From Dehalococcoidia bacterium (lineage in GTDB: Bacteria; Chloroflexota; Dehalococcoidia; Lucifugimonadales; UBA3495): a stretch of DNA of 64,000 nucleotides. Location: contig CBDHDK010000002.1 in the NCBI GenBank assembly GCA_965261355.1, positions 2,456 through 66,455 of the forward strand, given 5' to 3'. Of this stretch, positions 487 to 35,802 are shown piece after piece. The notes beneath the pieces were generated by a model. That model searched no databases and was not told the origin of the DNA. It saw only the letters and a list, made by a program, of their open reading frames with translations. The number at the start of each line of letters is the position of its first letter. Position 1 is the first letter of the stretch. Made by a program: the position numbers and the translations under genes.

Positions 487-788
487 GTCGCGTGGCCGTG
501 CCCCGGAAACCTACTAGGCCCTGTGCCGGGGTCGTGAGCGTGTCCATCCAAGTCGGCGAGGAGCCTGTCAGCCCCGGGGTCGAGGCGGCGCGGGAATTCC
601 AGTATTTCCTGCTGAGTCTCGCGTATCTCCCTCATGTCCTCTCAGTCCGTGCCTACGACGAAGATTTTGAGCACGAGGTATATGGTTAGAGCGACGAGGG
701 CCACGGGCAATAAGACAGAGAGCGCTACGAACAGGTGGGCGGACGCGACCAGCAGAAGGGACAAGGCTTTCCGCAGCACCCTGCGCGG

Positions 789-1103
789 CTACCCAGAGAT
801 GCCGTAGAGGGCGGTTAGGTAGAACAGCACGAAAGATGGTTGTCCGTCGTCTTGGTGCTTGGTGGCGGATTTCCAAGGCCATCTGACAGCCATGGATTCT
901 TCTGTGGCTGAAGTTGCTGTGCCTCTCGTATTCCCAACCCTGGGCGATGGCCACGGCTTTGGCGCCATGTGGGCGGCGGCGCCCCAACCCCTTTGGGACG
1001 CCTGATGCAGGTCGCCCTGGGTCAGGTACTCCCTGCTCTTCGCCAAGAAGTCGCGCGCCTGATTCACGTGGTCTGCAACTGCCTCAGTGTCGGATGTGAT
1101 CAA
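789..1103 (-). pseudogene. possible frameshifted small helical protein (N-terminus reminiscent of PaREP1/HEPN-like proteins)
   Basis: The N-terminal half MITSDTEAVADHVNQARDFLAKSREYLTQGDLHQASQRGWGAAAHM looks protein-like. A plausible continuation, AKAVAIAQGWEYERHSNF, lies in a different frame (ORF 568..987). The rest of the listed ORF is low-complexity. Family assignment is from memory only. Confidence 0.25.
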
Positions 1104-1149
1104 CGGTCCTCCTCCTGCCGGGGCTGTGCTGTCGGATGCGGCCTTTCAT

Positions 1150-1542
1150 TCAGCTCCTAACCCAATCGCTGACGATTGAGGCAATTCCAACAGTTGTTGC
1201 GAGAACCGCAACCACCATCGGGAACCAGTTTACCTTCAGCCATGTGCGAAGAGGGTACTTGATTTCCTCTAGCCTTCTTATTCCTTTCGGCGTGAGTCCA
1301 CTTATGAAAGAAGTGGGCACATTTCCGTCCGCATTACGAGGGGAGGCACTAACAAGAAGCCCGTCATCGAAGAGATGCGCGACAAGAGCATCGATTCGCC
1401 CCCTTATGTGGGGTCTGTCAAGAACCATCTTGCTCTTAGCTGAATTCCAAACGTCTGTGCGTGAAGTGTGCAGCACATCCTCAAGAATGTCGCGCTCCAT
1501 CCGCGCCACGTCGAAAGCGTTTTCTTCTGGACGGCTTTTCAT
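1150..1542 (-). CDS. hypothetical protein, winged-helix-like core (DUF2513-like?) with C-terminal TM helix
   Basis: 130-aa ORF. The start overlaps the upstream stop (ATGA at 1539-1542). Contains ..RIDALVAHLFDDGLLV...GLTPKGIRRLEEI.. followed by the hydrophobic tail WFPMVVAVLATTVGIASIV. Lies in a lower-GC region. Confidence 0.5.
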   Translation of the reverse strand: MKSRPEENAFDVARMERDILEDVLHTSRTDVWNSAKSKMVLDRPHIRGRIDALVAHLFDDGLLVSASPRNADGNVPTSFISGLTPKGIRRLEEIKYPLRTWLKVNWFPMVVAVLATTVGIASIVSDWVRS

Positions 1543-1838
1543 GGTTCGTCCTTCCGATGGTCTAGGTCGGTGAGCATTTGGATGACGGTCGCATTGAAAT
1601 CTATTTGGCGACGCAATATCACGCTGTACGCCTTCATGAAAAGCCAGGGATTATGCCCCTGCCGCATAATCTGATGGTCCAAACCGTCGGGAATTTCGTT
1701 GTTTGTCAGCGATTGCTCGAATTGCTCACCGAACCAATCAGAGGACATCGATTCCGAGATTTTCAACCAAGATCCGAAGAACTGTTGATACCCTTCCAGA
1801 ATCTCCATGCGCCTTTCCCAATTGTCCATTGATGCCAT
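1539..1838 (-). CDS. hypothetical protein (99 aa from ATG 1838; track start TTG 1853)
   Basis: ORF MASMDNWERRMEILEGYQQFF... The ATG at 1838 lies 4 nt after the stop of the HNH-frame relic and is translationally coupled to the next gene. No family recognised. Confidence 0.45.
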   Translation of the reverse strand: MASMDNWERRMEILEGYQQFFGSWLKISESMSSDWFGEQFEQSLTNNEIPDGLDHQIMRQGHNPWLFMKAYSVILRRQIDFNATVIQMLTDLDHRKDEP

Positions 1839-1842
1839 TACT

Positions 1843-2031
1843 TCACACCCCAATTTCCGATAATCTCGCCACGAGGTACTCGTGGGGCCGGCCGCCCTTG
1901 ATGCGGTTGCAGCTTGAGCAAAACAGTTGCAGGTTTTCCAGGTGGTCAGTCTCGCCGCGAGAGCGGGGAACGCGGTGGTCTACGCGGATCGGTTGATGTA
2001 ATCTCTGAGCGACTTCATATGCCGTTCCAAC
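1843..2031 (-). pseudogene. HNH endonuclease C-terminal motif in an unlisted frame (relic or frameshifted 3' part of the 1980..2588 gene)
   Basis: Hand translation gives [62 protein letters not shown]. This carries the DH..P....G....NL..(x)C..CN..K HNH signature. There is no ATG/GTG/TTG start in the frame and no upstream CxxC. It overlaps the 3' end of ORF 1980..2588 in another frame. Confidence 0.55.
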
Positions 2032-2588
2032 TCAGGGATTCCAATGTGCTTCGGGTCCCGGCCGGCGAGTTGGTCTACAAACCGCAGCAGGCTCTTGGCG
2101 TTGTCGAGATGGTCGTCTCGCCACCACTGGGAGCATACATAAAACCTGTCGGCGTACAGTTTGGTGTAGAACCTGTTTTGTCTGTCGTTATCCGACCCCC
2201 TTCTACCCGCTTCCCTTCGTCTGAGAAGTGGGAACCCGCCAAGTTGAAGGCCTAGGATGTTCTGCGTGTAGTCCCGGTTCATCAGGTTTTCAATATCGGT
2301 TTCTGTAAAGAGAGAGGGGTAGTCCTCCAAGAGTGTTTTCATCAGTTCCCGGACGATGGGTTGCACCTGGTCGGGCTGGGTTCCCTCACTCATATCGGCA
2401 GTTGACCGGCACCCCGGTTCCCTGGTCCTGACTGTGGTGTCTTGGCTGATGCCGACAGCAAGGCGGAACAGGGCCTTCTCCTCATCCGCCAGTTCCTCGT
2501 ACGCGGCGACCGCTGCTCGTACCCGTTCGTTCCTCTGTAGTTCAAGCTCCAGCAGCATTCTCAGGTCCTGGCTGTACCGTTGCGTCAT
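1980..2588 (-). CDS. hypothetical protein (possibly the N-terminal part of a frameshifted HNH nuclease)
   Basis: 202-aa ORF with non-repetitive sequence (..[33 protein letters not shown]..). No family recognised. Its 3' end overlaps the HNH-motif frame. Confidence 0.5.
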
Positions 2589-3005
2589 GTAGCCTCACGT
2601 CCTTTGGACGGGTGCTGCTGTCCGGCCAACCGGTTCCCACTGGGCTGGACAGACTTTCCCAGGGTGTTTTCTCAAACCACGCTCCTACATCTGCGCTAGG
2701 TTGACGGCCAGGTTGTAGGCGAACCAGCCGTCCCGGGTCCGGAAGCTCTGCGGCTTCGCGGTGTGGGCGTCCCGCACCAGTCCGAACCCGTCCTACCTGA
2801 CCCTGAACTTCTTCCTGTCACCGGAGAAGTAGATGTGCTTGGTCGTGAACCCGAGGAGTCCGGTGTCTTGAGTGTAGCTCCCATCACGAACTCTGATTCC
2901 CCTGTGATTCTCATCTCATCTCGAGATTTGGGCCGGGTTCGCCACCGGGGTGTAGGCAAACCATCAGTCCTTGGTCTTGAAAGACAGGGATGGCCGGGAG
3001 TGGGG

Positions 3006-4022
3006 TCAGGTTCGGCCGGATTCAATTAGCGTTGCGATCCGTTCTATTTGCTCAACTATCGAGTTGAGAACAGCCTCGTATTTGTCGCCATGCAGATGGA
3101 CCGGGATATAAATGTGGGTACCGTTCTGGTGTGCGTGGAATGGTTCCTTGAACAGTGCATCGACGACTTCCTGGCGCAGCCCATAGTCGTGCAGAGTAAA
3201 CCAGAGAGGGTTGTGATGGTAAGTGCTCCAGTCCCGAAAATAAATGCCGAATGAGGAGCTTTCCACTCCGCAGAATGTCATGTATCGGACGCTGTAGACA
3301 CGATGGACCGCCGGGCGGTAGGCTCCTCCTGGAACCGCCGCCCGTGAGTTCTCTATCAGACGTTCGACCGTATCGTCAATCAGCCCGTACAGGAGCGGCA
3401 GCGACCTTGGGAATTCAGGAGTCAGTGGACCGCGCTGTGTAGAATCGAAACCCCTCAGTTCAGCAATGTCCTGAAGTTGGTGTATGTCGTTCACCGTCTG
3501 GGCGACTGCCCTGCTGGCTTGGGCCGCTATGCTGTCCAAAAGGAAACGCCAACTGGTGAGGATCAGTTTGCGATGCTCGTCAACATCGCACCAGCGTATT
3601 TCCTGCTCCACATTTTCGTTACTCAGGTTAAAGCAAGCCTCCACTGACACTCGGTCCTTCAGTTCCTGCCAAAGCTCCTTCAGTCTGACTGGCGGGGCAA
3701 CGAAGAGAAGCGCCGACTGTTTGTCCTTCGGCAGTCGGCGCAGGTAGGTTACAGGCTGGTTGCTGGTCAAGCCGGCCCAGAACTTGGCCTCCAGCAGCAG
3801 CCGTTCCTGCTCTGTTTCATCATAAGTCGCTAGGTCAGGAGTTCCACCGCCCCGTCTGCCTAGGTTCTGCGTATCAACTCTCTTGATTTCTCCAATGTCG
3901 ACGTCACGGGTCAGCAGGAAATCACGCAGGGCCTGCCTGGAGGCTTCGGAACTGCTGAGGATGTGTCCCAGGGTGTGGGTGACGATCTCCTCTGAGCGGT
4001 TTACCAACTTGGGGGTTGTCAT
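3006..4022 (-). CDS. PD-(D/E)xK nuclease-like hypothetical protein
   Basis: 338-aa ORF. GGGTPDLATYDETEQERLLLEAKFWAGLTSNQP fits a PD...(D/E)xK motif (PD ... E-A-K). Lower GC than the core genes. Confidence 0.55.
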   Translation of the reverse strand: MTTPKLVNRSEEIVTHTLGHILSSSEASRQALRDFLLTRDVDIGEIKRVDTQNLGRRGGGTPDLATYDETEQERLLLEAKFWAGLTSNQPVTYLRRLPKDKQSALLFVAPPVRLKELWQELKDRVSVEACFNLSNENVEQEIRWCDVDEHRKLILTSWRFLLDSIAAQASRAVAQTVNDIHQLQDIAELRGFDSTQRGPLTPEFPRSLPLLYGLIDDTVERLIENSRAAVPGGAYRPAVHRVYSVRYMTFCGVESSSFGIYFRDWSTYHHNPLWFTLHDYGLRQEVVDALFKEPFHAHQNGTHIYIPVHLHGDKYEAVLNSIVEQIERIATLIESGRT

Positions 4023-4260
4023 CAGGAACTACCTCCGAATTTGTGCAGAGTCGTCGCCGGTCATCAATACTCTCACTTCGCAATTCCCTCGTAGATTTCA
4101 GAGTGCCTAGTCGAAACGGAGTCGGATTAGTACTACAGTCGCAGATGACTGGCTTTAGGGCCGGAGGGCCTTGACGGCCGTTGAACTTGGCTTCGGTTTA
4201 TGCGTCTGCGATAGAGGCAGAGTAAGCTGGTTAGACCCCTCTCTCACAAAAGATCTCGCC

Positions 4261-4580
4261 ATGCTTACCCTGCGCGAGGCGATTCCACCGGTTCTAATCC
4301 CCTTCGCAACACTATTTCGCGGCCCGACTTGGCGCAAAGCTCAGGTCCTGTTGGTGGGGGCCGTTTTGGCCCCAGGCCAGCGCACCGTGGCCTCGGCCCT
4401 TCGCGTCATGGGACTCAGCGGCGACCGCAACTACGCCCACTACCATCATGTGCTCAATCGGGCGGCATGGTCGGTGTCTCAAGTCCTGCTGGTATTGCTG
4501 ATCCGCCACTTGGACCGGGGCGATGACCCCCTGATCTTCGGTATCGACGAGACCTTGGAGCGACGCCGAGGTCCCCAGAT
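4261..4580 (+). pseudogene. N-terminal fragment of an IS701/IS4-like DDE transposase
   Basis: MLTLREAIPPVLIPFATLFRGPTWRKAQVLLVGAVLAPGQRTVASALRVMGLSGDRNYAHYHHVLNRAAWS...IFGIDETLERRRGP matches my recollection of IS701-type transposase N-termini. Similarity stops near 4580 and the frame then runs into an AT-rich junction. Confidence 0.5.
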
Positions 4581-4641
4581 CAACTTCACGCCGTCCGGCC
4601 TAGCAGCCTGTCTGAGGATTAGATTTTGGAGACGACAAGCG

Positions 4642-5361
4642 TCATAGTCTAATCTCATTGGTGAATAATAGGGTTAAATAAAACAGTAATCGTAATAGTT
4701 GGCTTTGGTGAAGACGATTTTCGTTTAGAACATTGTTTCTCGGACAGACTGCTAGGGTGCTGCGGAGCGTGGACCTGGCCACCCCGTACTTCCGTGCCAC
4801 CGCCGCCACCGGCATCCCTCCCTCCACATCCTGCCTAATTGCGACGAGCTGCTCGTCGGTCAGACGCCGCGGCCGGCCCAGTTCCACGCCCTTCGCCCTG
4901 GCGGCTTGAAGCCCCGCCCTGGTCCTGCGGCTGATGTTCTGGCGCTCTTGCCTGGCCACGTAGGCCGCCATGCTGGCCAGGACGTTGCCCATGAAGGCCT
5001 CGGGCGAGTCGGGGTCCGCGTCCAGGTACTTCGTCCACTGGACCTCGTTGCCGGCCAGGGACCGCAGCCGGATGCCGCGGCGCTGCAGATCGTAGATCGC
5101 CCACATCGTCTCGAGGTAGCGCCGTCCCAGTCGGTCGATGGCGACAACCACCAGCACATCGCCCTGAGCGAGCTGCTGGTCCAGGACGTGCCACTGGTCG
5201 CGGCTGTTGTAGTCCTTGGCCCCCGATGCCGCGACGTCGGCGTACACCTGCGCGGGTTCCACGCCAGCGCCGACGAGCTGGCGGCGCTGGACGTGGGGGT
5301 CGCTGCCGGGATGGCCAGGCTCCTGGTCCCGGCTGGTGCGGATGTAGCCGTAGGTGGTCAT
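4642..5361 (-). CDS. small serine recombinase (resolvase/invertase family)
   Basis: MTTYGYIRTSRDQ.. (catalytic Ser region), ..VVVAIDRLGRR.., and a C-terminal HTH ..VAAVARKYGVARSTLRSTL. The last ~34 aa are encoded by AT-rich DNA and look non-native. Confidence 0.8.
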   Translation of the reverse strand: MTTYGYIRTSRDQEPGHPGSDPHVQRRQLVGAGVEPAQVYADVAASGAKDYNSRDQWHVLDQQLAQGDVLVVVAIDRLGRRYLETMWAIYDLQRRGIRLRSLAGNEVQWTKYLDADPDSPEAFMGNVLASMAAYVARQERQNISRRTRAGLQAARAKGVELGRPRRLTDEQLVAIRQDVEGGMPVAAVARKYGVARSTLRSTLAVCPRNNVLNENRLHQSQLLRLLFYLTLLFTNEIRL

Positions 5362-29941: not shown

Positions 29942-30943
29942 ATGAAGTTTCGACAATTGCCGCGAACGGACCTGGTGCTGTCAGAGGTGGGGTTCGGGGT
30001 GTGGACTGTTGCCACGAACTGGTGGGGGAAGCTGGAGGACGCCGAGCGGGCCGCGCTGCTGGAAAACGCGGTGGAGCTGGGAATCAACTTCTTCGACACG
30101 GCCGACACGTACGGCGACGGGTACGGAGAGGAAATCCTGGCCACGGTGCTGGGACACAAGCGCAACGACCTCGTCATCGCGACGAAGTTCGGGTACGACA
30201 TCTACGATCCGACGCCACGGGACGGGCACCGGGAGAGGCCGCAGAAGTTCGACAAGGAGTTCGTGAAGTTCGCCTGCGAACAGAGCCTAAAGCGGCTGGA
30301 CACGGACTACATCGACCTGTACCAGGTGCACAACCCGCGGGTGGAGGCCCTGGAGCGGGACGAACTGTTCGAAGTCCTGGAGCAGCTCAAGTTCGAGGGG
30401 AAGATACGGCACTTCGGGGTCGCGCTGGGGCCGGACATCGGCTGGTTCGAGGAAGGCGAGATGTCGATGAGGGAGCGGCAGGTGGAAAGCCTGCAAATCA
30501 TCTACAGCATCCTGGAGATGGAGCCGGCCATCGACTTCTTTCCCATCGCCGAGGAGTGCGAGGTGGGGCTGCTGTCTCGGGTGCCGCACGCGTCGAACAC
30601 GCTGACGGGAGAATTCACCCAGGTGCCGGAGTTCGACCCGTCGGACCACCGGGCGTTCCGGCGAGGCGAGTGGATGCGGGAGGCGCTGGCCAAGGTGGAG
30701 CGGGTGCGGTTCCTAGCACAGGAGGACGCGAGGACAATGGCGCAGTCTGCGTTGCAGTTCGTGCTGAAGAAGCCGCAGATTGTTTCGGTGCTGCCCAACT
30801 TCACGAAGATGGAAGAGCTTCGGGAGTACACGGCCGCGGTGGATACGCCGCCGCTGACGGACGAGGAGCAGGGGCTGCTGGACGAGCTTTGGCAGAACAA
30901 GTTCTACCTGGAGGACCCGGAGCCGGTTTTCCGGGAGATTTAG
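29942..30943 (+). CDS. aldo/keto reductase
   Basis: ..GFGVWTV.., ..INFFDTADTYGDGYGEEIL.., ..IDLYQVHNP.., 333 aa. Confidence 0.85.
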   Translation: MKFRQLPRTDLVLSEVGFGVWTVATNWWGKLEDAERAALLENAVELGINFFDTADTYGDGYGEEILATVLGHKRNDLVIATKFGYDIYDPTPRDGHRERPQKFDKEFVKFACEQSLKRLDTDYIDLYQVHNPRVEALERDELFEVLEQLKFEGKIRHFGVALGPDIGWFEEGEMSMRERQVESLQIIYSILEMEPAIDFFPIAEECEVGLLSRVPHASNTLTGEFTQVPEFDPSDHRAFRRGEWMREALAKVERVRFLAQEDARTMAQSALQFVLKKPQIVSVLPNFTKMEELREYTAAVDTPPLTDEEQGLLDELWQNKFYLEDPEPVFREI

Positions 30944-31044
30944 GAATCGCTTCTGCCCGGGGTTGGCTTTACCTCGACCCTCCCCCTATCCCTCCCCACC
31001 GAGGGGTAAGAGATTTGGGGGCCTTCTTGTTGTCATCCTGACGA

Positions 31045-32178
31045 TCAGTCATCGTCGTCGGTTTGCACCTGGAGGTCGCGCGGGTTGTCAAGAACCCAAC
31101 GCTGCCCCTCGCGACGCAAGTCACCTTCCAACGAGACTACCTTCCTCTGGTCATGGGCCTCCACAATTCGGCTGTATTCTGAGGGGGCGAAGTCTACCCT
31201 GACGGAACTGATCGCTCCATCAACTATCGCCTTGAGGGTTACACGCCCACTAATTTGGGTCTGTCCGCGGGCCAAGACGTACACGTACCCGTCAAGTCGC
31301 TCGTTGGTGCGTTCTTGTCGGCCTTTTAGTATTCGGGACGCTTCTTTCAGAACGGCCATATCCGAACTGTTAAAAGCAATCTGAGCTCGACCCTCAGGGG
31401 GTTCTCGAACCAGCGACCAACTCACAGATACATCGACACTCTGACGGTTCTCAACATCGAGAAGGTTAGCTATGGCATCACACAGGTTGGCGCTCACCCC
31501 TTGTGATACATTCTGTTCAAACGCACTGATGCCTTCACCGTGGTCTGCCAAGGATACAGCACTCTTGGCCGACCTAAGTCCCGAGACCAGTTTCCGAGTA
31601 ACCCTACGGGCGAAAGGTTCAGGCGGCATTCCAGTGCTCATATCAGCTTGTCCCATAAGATTGGGAGGCACCGGGGAAAGCAGACTGATTACAAAACTTC
31701 CCATCTCTGTTTGTCCGAACCGGACAGTGTCCATATAATCGCTCGCTTCCTGAATTCGCCCCGCCCTATAAGCTCGTTGCGGCCGCGAAACGGAGCATGC
31801 AGCTGCCAGCAACAGGTTACGAGATTCTTGAAAGGATGAGACTCCGTCGGACACGCGCACCGAGCCGCTCGGAGCGGGTTCGGGTAATCGGACGCGAATT
31901 AGGTCATATTCAGACATTGAGACATCCCTAAGGATAGCCAGGGAGTCGCGATCCTCTACTTCCGATAATGTTTGGAGTATCTCCTCTATCCTGCGCTGGT
32001 AGTCAGAAAGAATGCGTGAAGGAACCAGAAGCTCCTGAGGCTGATTTTCCAAACCGAAGAGAAGCCCTGATTCGCCGAACGGTTCAATTTTCTGCCAGCC
32101 TTGAGATGCCAAGTAAAAATAAAGGGACCGCAGAGTCACCGACGAGAGTCCTAGAGATTCACTCGCATACCGGATCAT
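31045..32178 (-). CDS. hypothetical protein, partner of the DUF4365-like gene
   Basis: 377-aa non-repetitive ORF. The ATG lies 4 nt after the upstream stop and is preceded by AAGGGGTGA. GC is about 48% in hand-counted samples. No family recognised. Confidence 0.6.
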   Translation of the reverse strand: MIRYASESLGLSSVTLRSLYFYLASQGWQKIEPFGESGLLFGLENQPQELLVPSRILSDYQRRIEEILQTLSEVEDRDSLAILRDVSMSEYDLIRVRLPEPAPSGSVRVSDGVSSFQESRNLLLAAACSVSRPQRAYRAGRIQEASDYMDTVRFGQTEMGSFVISLLSPVPPNLMGQADMSTGMPPEPFARRVTRKLVSGLRSAKSAVSLADHGEGISAFEQNVSQGVSANLCDAIANLLDVENRQSVDVSVSWSLVREPPEGRAQIAFNSSDMAVLKEASRILKGRQERTNERLDGYVYVLARGQTQISGRVTLKAIVDGAISSVRVDFAPSEYSRIVEAHDQRKVVSLEGDLRREGQRWVLDNPRDLQVQTDDDD

Positions 32179-32182
32179 GTGT

Positions 32183-32686
32183 TCACCCCTTTAGCGGCTC
32201 GCCACGCCTTATCCTGTCCATCAGGAGAAACATCGCGTCGAGATCAAACCTTTGCGATTCTGGAATTACAACGACCCTAGAATCCCTCTCAATTTCGGGA
32301 TACCCCCAAAGCCATTCCCACCACGCGCATCGACGGATAATCAGTCCCTCGGCACTACAATCTACCCATTCCTCGGAAGCAGCGGGCAGCTCGAGAACCA
32401 CCAATATGGCCTTTAGCGTTCGATCCTCCTTCAAATCGTCATAGTTCTTGCGCCTCAGCCGAAAGTGCAAACCGTCTGCGTGCCAGTCGGGTGATGATGT
32501 CGCTTTGAGTTGTACGTCGAACACCGGCCTACTCGAACCTCGAGTACGTACAGTGGCATCAATACCATCTTCGTCCGGTGTGGGTCCCCTTTGGCAGGTA
32601 TAGCCTGCAATTGCGCACAAAGCGGAAAGATAAGAAAAAGACAATTCGCCCTTACGCTGATTGTCATCCATTGTACGGATGGTCAT
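32183..32686 (-). CDS. DUF4365-like PD-(D/E)xK-fold protein
   Basis: ..QRKGELSFSYLSALCAIAGYTCQRGPTPDEDGIDATVRTRGSSRPVFDVQLKATSS.. fits the GE..(x)YL...D.GID...VQ(L/V)KAT pattern I associate with DUF4365. GC is about 45% in a hand-counted sample. Confidence 0.55.
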   Translation of the reverse strand: MTIRTMDDNQRKGELSFSYLSALCAIAGYTCQRGPTPDEDGIDATVRTRGSSRPVFDVQLKATSSPDWHADGLHFRLRRKNYDDLKEDRTLKAILVVLELPAASEEWVDCSAEGLIIRRCAWWEWLWGYPEIERDSRVVVIPESQRFDLDAMFLLMDRIRRGEPLKG

Positions 32687-32913
32687 GCAGACAATGTCTC
32701 ACTTGCAGCTTGAGTATCCTCATCGAAACGAGGCGGCTAGCGGGTATCTTAACGCCATGGGACAAAACAGCAAACTTACGGGCTGAACTGAGCCAGAATC
32801 GCCGATACCCCTACGATCGAGAACATACCTTACGTTTATGTGTTGATTCTCGAATCGCCGCATTGGGATGTCAACGATGATTCCAATGCCGTTTGGCTAG
32901 CCGCAGCACAGGT

Positions 32914-32942
32914 TTGGCCCTCCCCGCGTGGTCGGGTATAAT
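32914..32942 (+). promoter_or_regulatory. sigma-70-like promoter candidate upstream of ppdK
   Basis: TTGGCC (32914-19), a 17-nt spacer, then TATAAT (32937-42), about 85 nt before the ppdK start. Confidence 0.35.
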
Positions 32943-33027
32943 CGAATTTCCTGGTTTATTGAGGTATGGGGTTGTTGTGTGCGTGAAACGACCGGGCAAT
33001 TGATGGAAATATAAGGGGTTTTTGCCG

Positions 33028-35802
33028 ATGGTTGTTGAGGCTCAGGCGGCGCAAATGGTGTACCGGTTTAGCGAAGGGGACGCCTCGATGGGGGACCTTC
33101 TGGGCGGCAAGGGAAGCAATCTCTGCGAGATGACGCGGCTGGGGCTGCCGGTCCCTCCGGGGTTTGTCATCACAACGCAGGTCTGCCGCGATTACCTAGC
33201 CGGGGACTATACGCTGCCCGAGGGGCTGGCGGCGACCGTCCGCGAACGCATTGTCGAGCTTGAGAAATCGATCGGGCACGATTTCGGCTCGGCCACGAAC
33301 CCGCTGCTGGTGTCTGTGCGGTCGGGTGCGCGCATCTCGATGCCCGGGATGATGGACACCATCCTGAACCTGGGCATCAACGACGAGATCGTCGATGGAC
33401 TGGGTGCGATGATGGGCGACCTCAGGCCGGCCTGGGACGCCTACCGCCGCTTCGTCCAGATCTACGCCGAAGTGGTGCAAGAGGTTGCGCCGGAACCTTT
33501 CGAGGAATGCCTGGCGGAGCACAAGGCACGAGCGGGTGTGGATCTGGATTTCCAGTTGACGGCCGAGCAACTACAGGCGGTAACCTCCGACTTCAAGGAG
33601 ATTGCACGGGAGTCCGCCGGGGCACCCCCGCCCAATGACCCATGGGAGCAGCTTTTCGGCGCAGTGGAAGCGGTGTTCCGGAGCTGGAACAACCCCCGGG
33701 CCACCGTGTACCGCAACCAGTACGGCATCGACCACCACATGGGAACGGCCGTGACCATCATGGGCATGGTGTACGGGAACCTGGGCCCGACAAGCGGGAC
33801 CGGAGTGCTGTTCACACGGGACCCGTCAAACGGGCGTCGCGAGGTGTACGGAGAGTTCCTGAGGAACGCGCAGGGCGAGGACGTGGTGGCCGGGGTACGC
33901 ACTCCCGAGCCGCTGTCGGCGCTGGCCGGAGCGATGCCGGAGCGGTCGAAGGAACTGCTGACGCTGGCAAACAACCTGGAAAAGCATTACCGCGACGTGC
34001 AGGACGTGGAGTTCACCATCGAGCAGGGGCGGCTGTACCTGCTACAGACGCGAAACGCCAAGCGCACACCGCTATCGGCGGTGAAGACGGCGGTGGACAT
34101 GGTGCGGGAGGGGATGATCAACCGTGAGGAGGCTCTGAAGCGGGTGGACGCCGAGGAAATCACGCGGCTGCTGGTGCCGCAGTTCGCCGCCGATATGTCG
34201 CCGAACGAACTGGACGAGAGACTGCTGACCACGGGAGCTGCGGCTTCGCCGGGGGCGGCGTCGGGCCGAGTGTGCTTCGACGCGGACGTTGCGGAAGACC
34301 TGGCCCGAAGAGGCGAGCAGGTCATCCTGGTGCGGCCGGAAACCAAGCCGGACGACATCCACGGCATCATCGCGTCGGCCGGGGTGGTCACCAGCCGCGG
34401 AGGAGTGACGAGCCACGCAGCAGTGGTGACGAGGGGGCTGGGGAAGCCTTGCATAGTCGGCTGCGAGGGGATGCAGGTCGACCTAGAACAGAGGGAGATG
34501 AATGGCAACGGGCTGACCGTCAAGGAAGGAGAGCGGGTCAGCATCGACGGAGCCCTGGGGCGGGTGTACACGGGGGAGCTGGCCACGGTGAACCCGAGAC
34601 TGGAGGACCTGCCGGAAGCGAGCGAGTTGCTGCGCTGGGCGGACGAGACGCGCCGGCTGGGCGTGATGGCCAACGCCGATACGCCGGCCGACGCCAGGCA
34701 GGCAATCGTGATGGGCGCGGAGGGCATCGGATTGTGCCGTACGGAGCACATGTTCCTTGACCCGAACCGCCTACCCGCGGTCCGACAGATGCTGCTGAAC
34801 TCGGAGGCGGCGGAAGAGTGGCGGCGGGAGCACGGAGACCTGCATGTCGATCCGCTGGCCAATCCGTTCATGAACCCGGAAGTGTCGGACATCCCGTCGG
34901 CAGTCGTCGACTTCTACAAGGCCCTGGACCGGGTGAAACTGCTGCAGACCAACGACTTCAGGGGAATACTGCGGGTGATGTCGCGCAAGCCGGTGATCAT
35001 CCGGCTGCTGGACGCGCCGCTGCACGAGTTCCTGCCGCCGTACGAGGAATTGCTGACGGAAGTAGTGACGCTCAGAGCAACGAGAGCGGATGCGGTTCTG
35101 GTCTCGGAGAAAGAATCGTTCCTGCAGAGGGTGGAGTCGCTTCGTGAGACGAACCCGATGCTGGGGCATCGCGGTTGCCGGCTGGGGCTGTCGTTCCCGG
35201 ACATCTACAGGATGCAGGTGGAGGCAATCATTACGGCCGGGGCACAACTGGTCCAAGAGGGCGTCGAGGTCCATCCGGAGATCATGATTCCGCTGACGGT
35301 GGACGTGGAAGAGATGCGGAGGCTGCGGGCCGACCTGACGCGGGTTGCCTCGTTAGTGCAGGAGCAGATGGACGTCGAGGTGCACTACAAATTCGGGACG
35401 ATGGTGGAGACACCTAGGGCGGCTCTGACGGCGGGGGCAGTGGCAGAGGAGTCGGAGTTCTTCAGCTTCGGCACCAACGACCTGACGCAGATGACATACG
35501 GTTTCAGCCGGGACGACGCCGAGGGGAAGTTCCTGCGAAACTACATCAACGAGGGAGTGCTGCCAGCGGACCCCTTCGCCACCATCGACCGGGACGGCGT
35601 GGGCGAGCTGGTGCGAATGGCGGTGAAGGCGGGTCGCAAGGTGCGGCCGGACCTGGAGATAGGCATCTGCGGCGAGCACGGGGGCGACCCGTCGAGCGTG
35701 GCCTTCTGCCATGAGGCGGAATTGGACTACGTGAGCTGCTCGCCCTTCCGGGTGCCGGTGGCGCGGCTGGCAGCGGCGCAGGCGGCGTTGCGAGACAGCT
35801 AA
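33028..35802 (+). CDS. ppdK: pyruvate, phosphate dikinase
   Basis: ..GGKGSNLCEMTRLGLPVPPGFVITT.., the phospho-His region ..TSRGGVTSHAAVVTRGLGKPC.., ..GLCRTEHMF.., ..CGEHGGDP... The track start TTG 33022 is also possible. Confidence 0.95.
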   Translation: MVVEAQAAQMVYRFSEGDASMGDLLGGKGSNLCEMTRLGLPVPPGFVITTQVCRDYLAGDYTLPEGLAATVRERIVELEKSIGHDFGSATNPLLVSVRSGARISMPGMMDTILNLGINDEIVDGLGAMMGDLRPAWDAYRRFVQIYAEVVQEVAPEPFEECLAEHKARAGVDLDFQLTAEQLQAVTSDFKEIARESAGAPPPNDPWEQLFGAVEAVFRSWNNPRATVYRNQYGIDHHMGTAVTIMGMVYGNLGPTSGTGVLFTRDPSNGRREVYGEFLRNAQGEDVVAGVRTPEPLSALAGAMPERSKELLTLANNLEKHYRDVQDVEFTIEQGRLYLLQTRNAKRTPLSAVKTAVDMVREGMINREEALKRVDAEEITRLLVPQFAADMSPNELDERLLTTGAAASPGAASGRVCFDADVAEDLARRGEQVILVRPETKPDDIHGIIASAGVVTSRGGVTSHAAVVTRGLGKPCIVGCEGMQVDLEQREMNGNGLTVKEGERVSIDGALGRVYTGELATVNPRLEDLPEASELLRWADETRRLGVMANADTPADARQAIVMGAEGIGLCRTEHMFLDPNRLPAVRQMLLNSEAAEEWRREHGDLHVDPLANPFMNPEVSDIPSAVVDFYKALDRVKLLQTNDFRGILRVMSRKPVIIRLLDAPLHEFLPPYEELLTEVVTLRATRADAVLVSEKESFLQRVESLRETNPMLGHRGCRLGLSFPDIYRMQVEAIITAGAQLVQEGVEVHPEIMIPLTVDVEEMRRLRADLTRVASLVQEQMDVEVHYKFGTMVETPRAALTAGAVAEESEFFSFGTNDLTQMTYGFSRDDAEGKFLRNYINEGVLPADPFATIDRDGVGELVRMAVKAGRKVRPDLEIGICGEHGGDPSSVAFCHEAELDYVSCSPFRVPVARLAAAQAALRDS

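Follow-up and report, generated by a model that had tools for sequence, protein, structure and literature searches.

What is a small, GC-poor pair of genes doing between two housekeeping genes of a Dehalococcoidia bacterium? We addressed this question for a 64,000-nt stretch of assembly GCA_965261355.1 (contig CBDHDK010000002.1, positions 2,456 to 66,455; hereafter the window), in which two minus-strand genes, A (167 aa) and B (377 aa), lie between an aldo/keto reductase gene and ppdK. An earlier note on the window had read the pair as a horizontally acquired operon with the shape of an anti-phage or abortive-infection module, and had considered it to be its best candidate for an undescribed system. 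The two open reading frames (ORFs) and their flanking genes are located exactly where the note had placed them. We consider it probable that the cassette is a mobile two-gene anti-phage module of the catalogued family PDC-M02, residing in a lineage-specific hotspot, with A as the effector and B as the sensor or partner.

Assignment of the cassette to the catalogued family PDC-M02

Both proteins match profiles of PADLOC-DB v2 over their full length. Residues 6–163 of A align with positions 3–165 of the 167-position PDC-M02A profile (PDLC04278, E=7.6e-47), and residues 7–375 of B align with positions 7–377 of the 380-position PDC-M02B profile (PDLC04298, E=1.1e-123). The gene arrangement is also that of PDC-M02: A comes first, B follows directly, and both are on the same strand. 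The pair agrees with PDC-M02 and with DUF4365 in every testable feature, and it is almost certainly a member of PDC-M02. Because both proteins match the PDC-M02 models full length, the cassette is not an undescribed system, and the view that it could not be placed in any named system has to be given up. The note had also recognised nothing in the 377-aa partner; this stands for Pfam and NCBIfam, which gave no match to B, and it does not stand for PADLOC.

The PDC systems were defined through 'guilt-by-embedding' in BREX, DISARM and type I restriction–modification (RM) loci, and 145 PDCs were stated to be untested; in the supplementary table, the entry for cassette CAS_00021 (FAM_01850>>FAM_00842) gives 894 as the count and carries the remark 'Assign as candidate PDC-M02' (Payne et al. 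2024, bioRxiv 10.1101/2024.01.29.577857). The definition of the PDC-M02 family is computational; what is new here is the Dehalococcoidia member. In the literature searched, we found no functional study of PDC-M02, the name 'PDC-M02' occurred in no main text, and the DUF4365 papers did not describe the A-B pair. The window pair resembles PDC-M02 in gene order, strand, tight coupling and the association of its relatives with BREX-, DISARM- and RM-type loci. It differs just in having a +4 nt spacer instead of the usual 4-nt overlap; none of the differences is structural.

Protein A carries an intact DUF4365/DREN nuclease motif

Protein A matches the Pfam family PF14280 (DUF4365) with 60.3 bits (cutoff 24.3, E=2.7e-16), its residues 14–158 covering positions 2–138 of the 139-position profile. 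The motifs quoted in the earlier note, GELSFSYL, DEDGIDA and DVQLKAT, are all present. Across 42 homologs and 53/53 diverse A-B pairs, D43, Q59 and K61 of the catalytic core (Table 1) are invariant, and D57 is variable. In the clade of A, the first Asp of the DxGxD motif is replaced by the nearby D38, which is invariant (PD-x-D-[SGT]-[IV]-D).

The AlphaFold2 model of A is of high confidence (pLDDT, predicted local distance difference test, 90.7) and shows the α-β-β-β-α-β arrangement of the PD-(D/E)xK fold. In the Foldseek search against the PDB, the best matches of A are the SPARDA DREN chains 9qcc, 9vx6 and 9jt2 (E=2.7e-7 to 1e-5, TMq 0.55–0.61), followed by archaeal Hjc resolvases, EcoRV and I-Ssp6803I; SwaI is also among the structural matches. 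A profile of A found no match among the PDB sequences at the sequence level. Pfam, the model and Foldseek all agree with the DUF4365 assignment and the PD-(D/E)xK fold that had been proposed for A. Judged by profile and model, A is a DUF4365/DREN PD-(D/E)xK nuclease with an intact catalytic motif, and nuclease activity is predicted.

Characterised relatives depend on the same residues. In TmuRE, the Q62A/K64A substitution, at the equivalents of the Gln and Lys of A, inactivates the nuclease (PMC10810196); in EAT16, a toxin of an extracellular contractile injection system (D42/D46/Q66/K68), three of the four single mutants lose cytotoxicity (PMC11297309). DUF4365/DREN proteins have been described both as non-specific DNases (PMC10810196) and as toxins (PMC11297309).

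Genes A and B form one unit

We fetched 89 loci with B relatives from metagenomes and IMG/VR, 77 of which have room upstream of B. A DUF4365 gene lies immediately 5′ of B on the same strand in 75 of these 77 loci, down to ∼20% B identity; the test of co-occurrence that had been proposed for the two families therefore came out in their favour. The stop codon of A and the start codon of B overlap by 4 nt in 52 of the 58 full-length pairs. The window pair is a minor variant: its junction reads AAAGGGGTGAacacATG on the minus strand, with a 4-nt spacer and with the Shine-Dalgarno-like AAGGGG in the end of A, both as noted earlier. The pairwise identities of A and B are strongly correlated (r=0.87, Mantel 0/999). 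Taken together, these observations indicated that A and B are one unit, with obligatory pairing and co-evolution.

In the two loci that lack an upstream DUF4365 gene, the place is taken by an unrelated 175-aa ORF (L074) or holds no ORF of at least 60 aa in 551 nt (L050). Two apparent A-B fusions were also observed, P0082 (exactly 167+377 aa; its record is tagged '4x', which we read as low coverage) and P0301. As Rosetta-stone support they are weighted lightly, because one indel in the 4-nt overlap makes a fusion.

Protein B consists of three parts

The B family is large, with 5641 representatives of 50%-identity metagenome clusters at E≤1e-3, of which 2017 remain at E≤1e-30. Forty of its members, scanned at E≤10, pointed to no consistent weak family. 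The AlphaFold2 model of B (pLDDT 86.4; pTM, predicted TM-score, 0.79) has three parts, namely an N-terminal α/β domain, a strongly conserved central domain and a C-terminal OB-like barrel. In the Foldseek search against the PDB, B has no whole-chain match, and none at E≤0.001.

In the 53 diverse pairs, 28 of the 47 B positions conserved at ≥90% fall within the central domain. The conserved central residues are A126-A127-C128, G155/T157/E158/G160/S161 and G227/S229/A230/N231/L232/C233; they suggest a specific ligand-binding or catalytic pocket around C128, T157/E158/S161 and N231/C233. The weak local Foldseek matches of B (∼90 columns, E=0.009–0.2) are all OB folds, including those of PolC, SSB, RPA, Stn1/Ten1, AspRS and viral SSB/LEF-3. 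The program reports no query ranges; we infer that these matches lie on residues 290–371 of the model.

Several other assignments of B were tried and rejected. The best BFVD match (E=3.4e-22), a 381-aa protein that Leptospira phage LE1 encodes and that is itself uncharacterised, is a family member and not an annotation; otherwise BFVD yielded just uncharacterised family members and one weak DUF6575 match. The sole matches of a B profile among PDB sequences are designed armadillo-repeat proteins, which we rejected as a repeat artefact because one 30-residue stretch matched repeatedly. The possibility that B is a divergent APAZ or Argonaute protein was also dropped: it has no Pfam match, and the top 50 of its 664 weak Foldseek PDB matches contain no Ago or APAZ chain. 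SPARDA complexes are present in the same PDB library and were found by A.

Two further proteins deserve mention. The B homolog P0297 (752 aa) carries a C-terminal TPR array, a feature typically found in sensor proteins. The 101-aa protein A0A482MK90 of Nodularia phage vB_NspS-kac65v162, from BFVD, superposes remarkably closely on a part of B of ∼89 residues (TMt 0.76, root mean square deviation 1.9 Å, 24% identity). One could speculate, and purely so, that a B domain encoded on its own by a phage would be a decoy or an anti-defence protein.

The insert is foreign and occupies a variable defence hotspot

The GC contents of A and B are 52.2% and 53.5%, compared to 65.0% for ppdK, 62.9% for the reductase gene and 61.8% for the window on average. 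The dip reported earlier is real; the hand counts of 45% and 48%, against 68% in ppdK, had overstated it. Far more telling than the overall dip is the GC content at third codon positions, which is 0.53–0.54 in A and B and 0.74–0.88 in five host genes nearby. No other 1.9-kb stretch of the window is as low in GC as the insert (0.522; mean 0.618, sd 0.029).

The edges of the insert could be placed by comparison with other genomes. On the left, the reductase stop codon and a G/C-rich block reaching to ∼31030 are also present in the empty-site genomes; on the right, the ppdK promoter block TTTGGCC...GTCGGGTATAAT (32912–32942) is common to all alleles. The cassette travels together with 224 bp of upstream DNA, which is also found in L001, the one relative that carries the same cassette, and which contains the promoter-like site of Table 1; this site is a consensus match alone, and the consensus is not validated for Dehalococcoidia promoters. 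The window contains no tRNA gene, and no integrase ORF was seen; repeats flanking the insert are short matches at chance level, and Rfam gave no match in the cassette at E≤1.

With the reductase as the anchor, we obtained 44 loci, almost all from Dehalococcoidia metagenome-assembled genomes (MAGs), and ppdK follows in 32 of them. Across these 32 syntenic loci the gap between the two genes (30944–33021 in the window) is as short as 9 bp and as long as 5.7 kb. The PDC-M02 cassette is present in just one of the 32, L001, and several gaps are nearly empty, with the reductase and ppdK adjacent, as the earlier note had suggested checking. Together with the foreign composition, these results support the horizontal acquisition that the note had claimed. 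As listed in Table 1, other gaps hold varied cargo, including RM, Abi and PD-T4-4 systems, and the GC content of all cargo is below that of the flanks. Across Dehalococcoidia MAGs, the reductase-ppdK site is thus a defence hotspot of variable content that lacks an integrase; its cargo is likely exchanged by homologous recombination between the conserved flanks.

In L001 (9091–10225, minus strand), B is split into ORFs of 178 and 229 aa by a 1-nt insertion (CAGGAAGCG to CAGGAATGCG), and A is intact. Either the system is decaying there or the frameshift is an error of the assembly.

Table 1. Positions of the cassette, its parts and its flanks in the window, and contents of the reductase-ppdK gap in syntenic relatives
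Feature	Position or locus	Strand	Description
Gene A	32183..32686	−	167-aa ORF; predicted stand-alone DUF4365 (DREN-type) PD-(D/E)xK nuclease; PADLOC PDC-M02A
A catalytic core	32504..32560	−	D43 ... D57-V-Q59-L-K61; D...QxK variant of PD-(D/E)xK
Gene B	31045..32178	−	377-aa ORF; partner protein, fold unassigned; PADLOC PDC-M02B
B central domain	31429..31854	−	Residues 109–250, most conserved part; no match to known domain
B C-terminal OB-like β-barrel	31066..31311	−	Residues 290–371; DSSP β1-β2-β3-α-β4-β5
Shine-Dalgarno-like AAGGGG for B	32186..32191	−	Within 3′ end of A; read from sequence
Promoter-like site TTGACA-17-GAGAAT	32846..32874	−	5′ of A within insert; consensus scan, 10/12 matches
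Whole insert in hotspot	31035..32910	.	∼1.87 kb; GC 0.528; bounds from alignment to empty sites
Aldo_ket_red flank gene	29942–30943	+	
ppdK flank gene	33022–35802	+	PPDK_N/PEP-utilizers
Gap empty or nearly so	L022, L020, L029, L021, L016, L004, L027, L038		9–271 bp
Gap with same PDC-M02 cassette	L001		B frameshifted
Gap with PD-T4-4 A+B and PDC-S03/Uma2	L002		
Gap with PDC-M32 A+B	L023		
Gap with NotI-family restriction endonuclease and D12 methylase	L033		
Gap with Type II restriction endonuclease and methylase	L037		
Gap with IIG-like methylase	L039		921 aa
Gap with ApeA_NTD1 / PDC-S58	L014, L026		
Gap with DUF2806 / Abi_alpha	L034		
Gap with PIN toxin	L011		
Gap with P63C-domain protein	L010		
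Gap with other cargo	L015, L005		No Pfam or PADLOC match
Gap with secreted metalloprotease-like protein	L006, L019, L032, L003		Non-defence

Relatives of the pair reside in defence loci, plasmids and prophages

In complete genomes, the pair occurs inside loci composed, in this order, of an MmeI-type methylase, the pair itself, a Helicase_C protein of ∼1130 aa, a protein with MZB/DUF1998 and a PLDc protein, which we take to be DISARM-like from their Pfam content. ThsB-TIR, AbiJ_NTD4 and AAA_15/DUF4276 genes adjoin such loci, and in another genome an Eco57I-type enzyme adjoins the pair. By tblastn, the pair was detected on 13 plasmids, which span several phyla (Alpha- and Betaproteobacteria, Entomospira, Streptomyces, Pusillibacter and Pigmentibacter). 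A Gluconobacter copy, carried by a conjugative plasmid, adjoins a RelE/ParE module, with a Fic gene nearby, and a HipA module is also among the neighbours of relatives. Two Mycobacterium abscessus prophage records carry the pair at the extreme left end, with DUF4365 as gene 1 overlapping gene 2 by 4 nt; in such a record it lies beside genes of WXG-motif proteins and not among the replication genes.

These neighbourhoods, together with the cargo of the hotspot, agree with the defence-like shape that the earlier note had seen in the pair. The four outcomes that it had named as contrary to its proposal were all absent: the position is not conserved with host-like composition, B matches no housekeeping family, a nuclease fold is predicted for A, and the two families co-occur.

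A proposed model for the A-B module

A defence function of the cassette is likely. The identity of A with its intact motif, the pairing and co-evolution of A and B, the foreign origin, the mobility and the defence-rich context carry this view; defence activity as such, a physical complex of A with B and a sensor function of B are inferred. The mechanism that we propose below is tentative in its specific sensor and oligomerisation steps. Activation by assembly is proposed by analogy with SPARDA, where DREN by itself is an inactive monomer that becomes active via tetramerisation on a sensor filament (PMC12205087).

In this model, A would be a minimal DUF4365/DREN effector nuclease, and B, made with A by translational coupling, would probably be in complex with it. 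In the resting state, B would keep A inactive or dispersed. Upon infection, the OB-like or central domain of B would bind a cue, for which a nucleic-acid intermediate of the phage is the most plausible candidate, and a change in the assembly state of B would gather A protomers into an active oligomer. The oligomer would degrade DNA, and possibly RNA, non-specifically; phage replication would be stopped and the cell would become dormant or die, as in abortive infection. A sensor-like B is suggested by its OB-like barrel and by the TPR array of the homolog P0297.

Several points weigh against this picture. No recognisable sensor domain is present in B, and its OB assignment derives from weak local Foldseek matches with E values of about 0.01–0.2. 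The idea of sensing through the OB-like barrel may be wrong, because the central domain and not the barrel is the most conserved part of B. The A-B fusions could be single-indel artefacts. Within the window the cassette is on its own, and no further defence genes adjoin it. No PDC-M02 member with tested activity has been reported, and PDC-M63 and PDC-S04 were negative when tested (PMC12409345); PDC-M05, PDC-S05 and PDC-S70 were positive (PMC12881386).

Relation to known defence systems

Among known systems, SPARDA is similar to the A-B pair in several respects. It has the same DUF4365/DREN effector domain and catalytic motif, and its DREN chains are the best structural matches of A; it is also a two-gene system with the nuclease gene ahead of the partner gene. 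The two systems likely share the logic of an inactive monomeric nuclease and a sensor-driven assembly. Different from SPARDA, A is the 167-aa DUF4365 domain alone and lacks the APAZ required of a SPARDA effector, neither Pfam nor Foldseek relates B to MID/PIWI or APAZ, as they would a short Argonaute, and the pair shows no evidence for nucleic-acid guides. Therefore, the A-B pair is not a SPARDA, though it may work alike at the effector end.

EAT16 and the integron defence cassette 'Divona' likewise use a DUF4365 domain as a toxic or defensive effector, and its D...QxK residues are needed for toxicity. Different from the A-B pair, both are single proteins with fused domains (an Mrr-subfamily RecB-like nuclease plus crr6 in Divona, and a second, C-terminal domain in EAT16), and neither has been reported with a B-like partner. 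In Hachiman, a small PD-(D/E)xK effector (the DUF1837 nuclease HamA) is combined with a larger partner, the helicase HamB, which is thought to sense the state of DNA, and DNA is degraded in an abortive manner. The combination of a small PD-(D/E)xK effector and a larger partner is the same in A-B; however, B has no helicase or ATPase motifs, the nuclease belongs to another subfamily, and no homology was detected.

Other explanations of the pair

The strongest rival is a two-subunit type IV-like, Mrr-type restriction enzyme, in which B would be the DNA-recognition subunit, would distinguish phage DNA by, for instance, its modified bases or an unusual structure, and would direct A straight to the foreign DNA, as a first line of restriction that does not kill the cell. 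The D...QxK motif of DUF4365 is shared with Mrr, EcoRV and SwaI are among the structural matches of A, and type I RM and BREX loci are the classical setting of modification-dependent nucleases (Mrr, McrBC, BrxU/GmrSD); it is from loci of this kind that PDC-M02 was picked, and its relatives sit in them. However, neither Pfam, Foldseek nor the 40-member scan detected an SRA, winged-helix, YTH or other known modified-DNA reader in B, whose conserved central domain has no assigned function; the sole recognisable element of B is OB-like, which is usually single-strand binding, and all characterised DUF4365 nucleases are non-specific or collateral. We regard this explanation as unlikely.

Carriage on plasmids and in prophages raises a second rival, a toxin–antitoxin (TA) or addiction module that stabilises plasmids, prophages and islands, with A as the toxin, B as a protein antitoxin and phage defence as a secondary effect. 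A nuclease of toxic type that is tightly coupled to its partner in translation and co-evolves with it speaks for such a module, as do the RelE/ParE and HipA modules among the neighbours. B, at 377 aa, is large, multi-domain and more constrained than a typical antitoxin; it is not the small, labile DNA-binding antitoxin of a type II module, and no HTH, RHH, AbrB or other antitoxin-type DNA-binding domain was detected in it. L001, with its frameshifted B and intact A, can be read on either side: it has been counted for the TA module, with the reservation that it may be a sequencing error, and, if the frameshift is real, an intact A is tolerated there without a functional B, which argues against a constitutively toxic A. 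Addiction alone does not explain the embedding in DISARM-like and RM loci. A TA module as the primary role is quite unlikely, and a TA role could coexist with one in abortive infection.

A recombination or repair module that would process the DNA of a mobile element and have no part in immunity, made of a Hjc-like structure-specific nuclease and an OB-fold single-strand-binding or annealing partner, would fit the resemblance of A to archaeal Holliday-junction resolvases, that of the B C-terminus to SSB, RPA and LEF-3 OB folds, and the existence of PHROG families for both proteins, but it is very unlikely, given that no phage, replication or recombination genes are near the pair in the window and most loci, that the cassette is interchangeable with RM, Abi and PD-T4-4 cargo at one hotspot, and that the M. 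abscessus prophage copy lies at the left end, away from replication genes.

Further observations in the window and the hotspot

A second, milder low-GC patch (∼0.55) was observed at ∼500–4650 of the window, with ORFs at 1980–2588 (minus strand), 3006–4022 (minus strand) and 4171–4647 (plus strand). Two ORFs of the patch (202 and 338 aa) have no Pfam or PADLOC match and lie beside a DDE_5 transposase fragment; the patch may be another acquired islet. A metagenome contig with an identical B gene (L045:6375–9151) has ppdK called as two genes (800 + 144 aa), compared to the single 926-aa ORF of the window. The split is probably an assembly error, because the contig name is tagged '3x'.

Within the hotspot, L015:9097–10970 contains three plus-strand ORFs (286, 170 and 165 aa), joined by a 4-nt overlap and then a 6-nt spacer, and L005:9170–10252 contains a 360-aa ORF; none has a Pfam or PADLOC match. 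A homolog of the 170-aa protein of L015, likewise unmatched in Pfam and PADLOC, is present at L008:9033–9518, beside a weakly DndB/DpdB-like protein of 413 aa. The cargo of L015, L005 and L008 offers better candidates for unnamed systems than the A-B pair does.

Significance

To a specialist the existence of the cassette is unsurprising; its interest lies in experimental validation and mechanism, not in discovery, and what B does and how a DREN nuclease that stands alone is controlled are testable questions. With a count of 894 and more than 5,600 clusters in the B family, PDC-M02 is one of the more common defence candidates that await characterisation. The reductase-ppdK hotspot can be mined for further systems, because its L015 and L005 alleles match nothing known.

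DUF4365/DREN is a potent collateral DNase/RNase, known from SPARDA and used in diagnostics, and here it is combined with a partner that lacks an assigned fold. It is conceivable, if somewhat doubtful, that B represents an uncharacterised type of infection sensor, whose central pocket and OB-like barrel would bind phage-derived nucleic acid or a small molecule and, through assembly, turn on a collateral nuclease of the DREN type. If true, this would be an Argonaute-independent and guide-independent route to SPARDA-type effector chemistry, with thousands of members in many phyla, plasmids and prophages. The mode by which B controls the nuclease would add a new type of sensor to bacterial immunity, and it could yield a compact, guide-free switchable nuclease.

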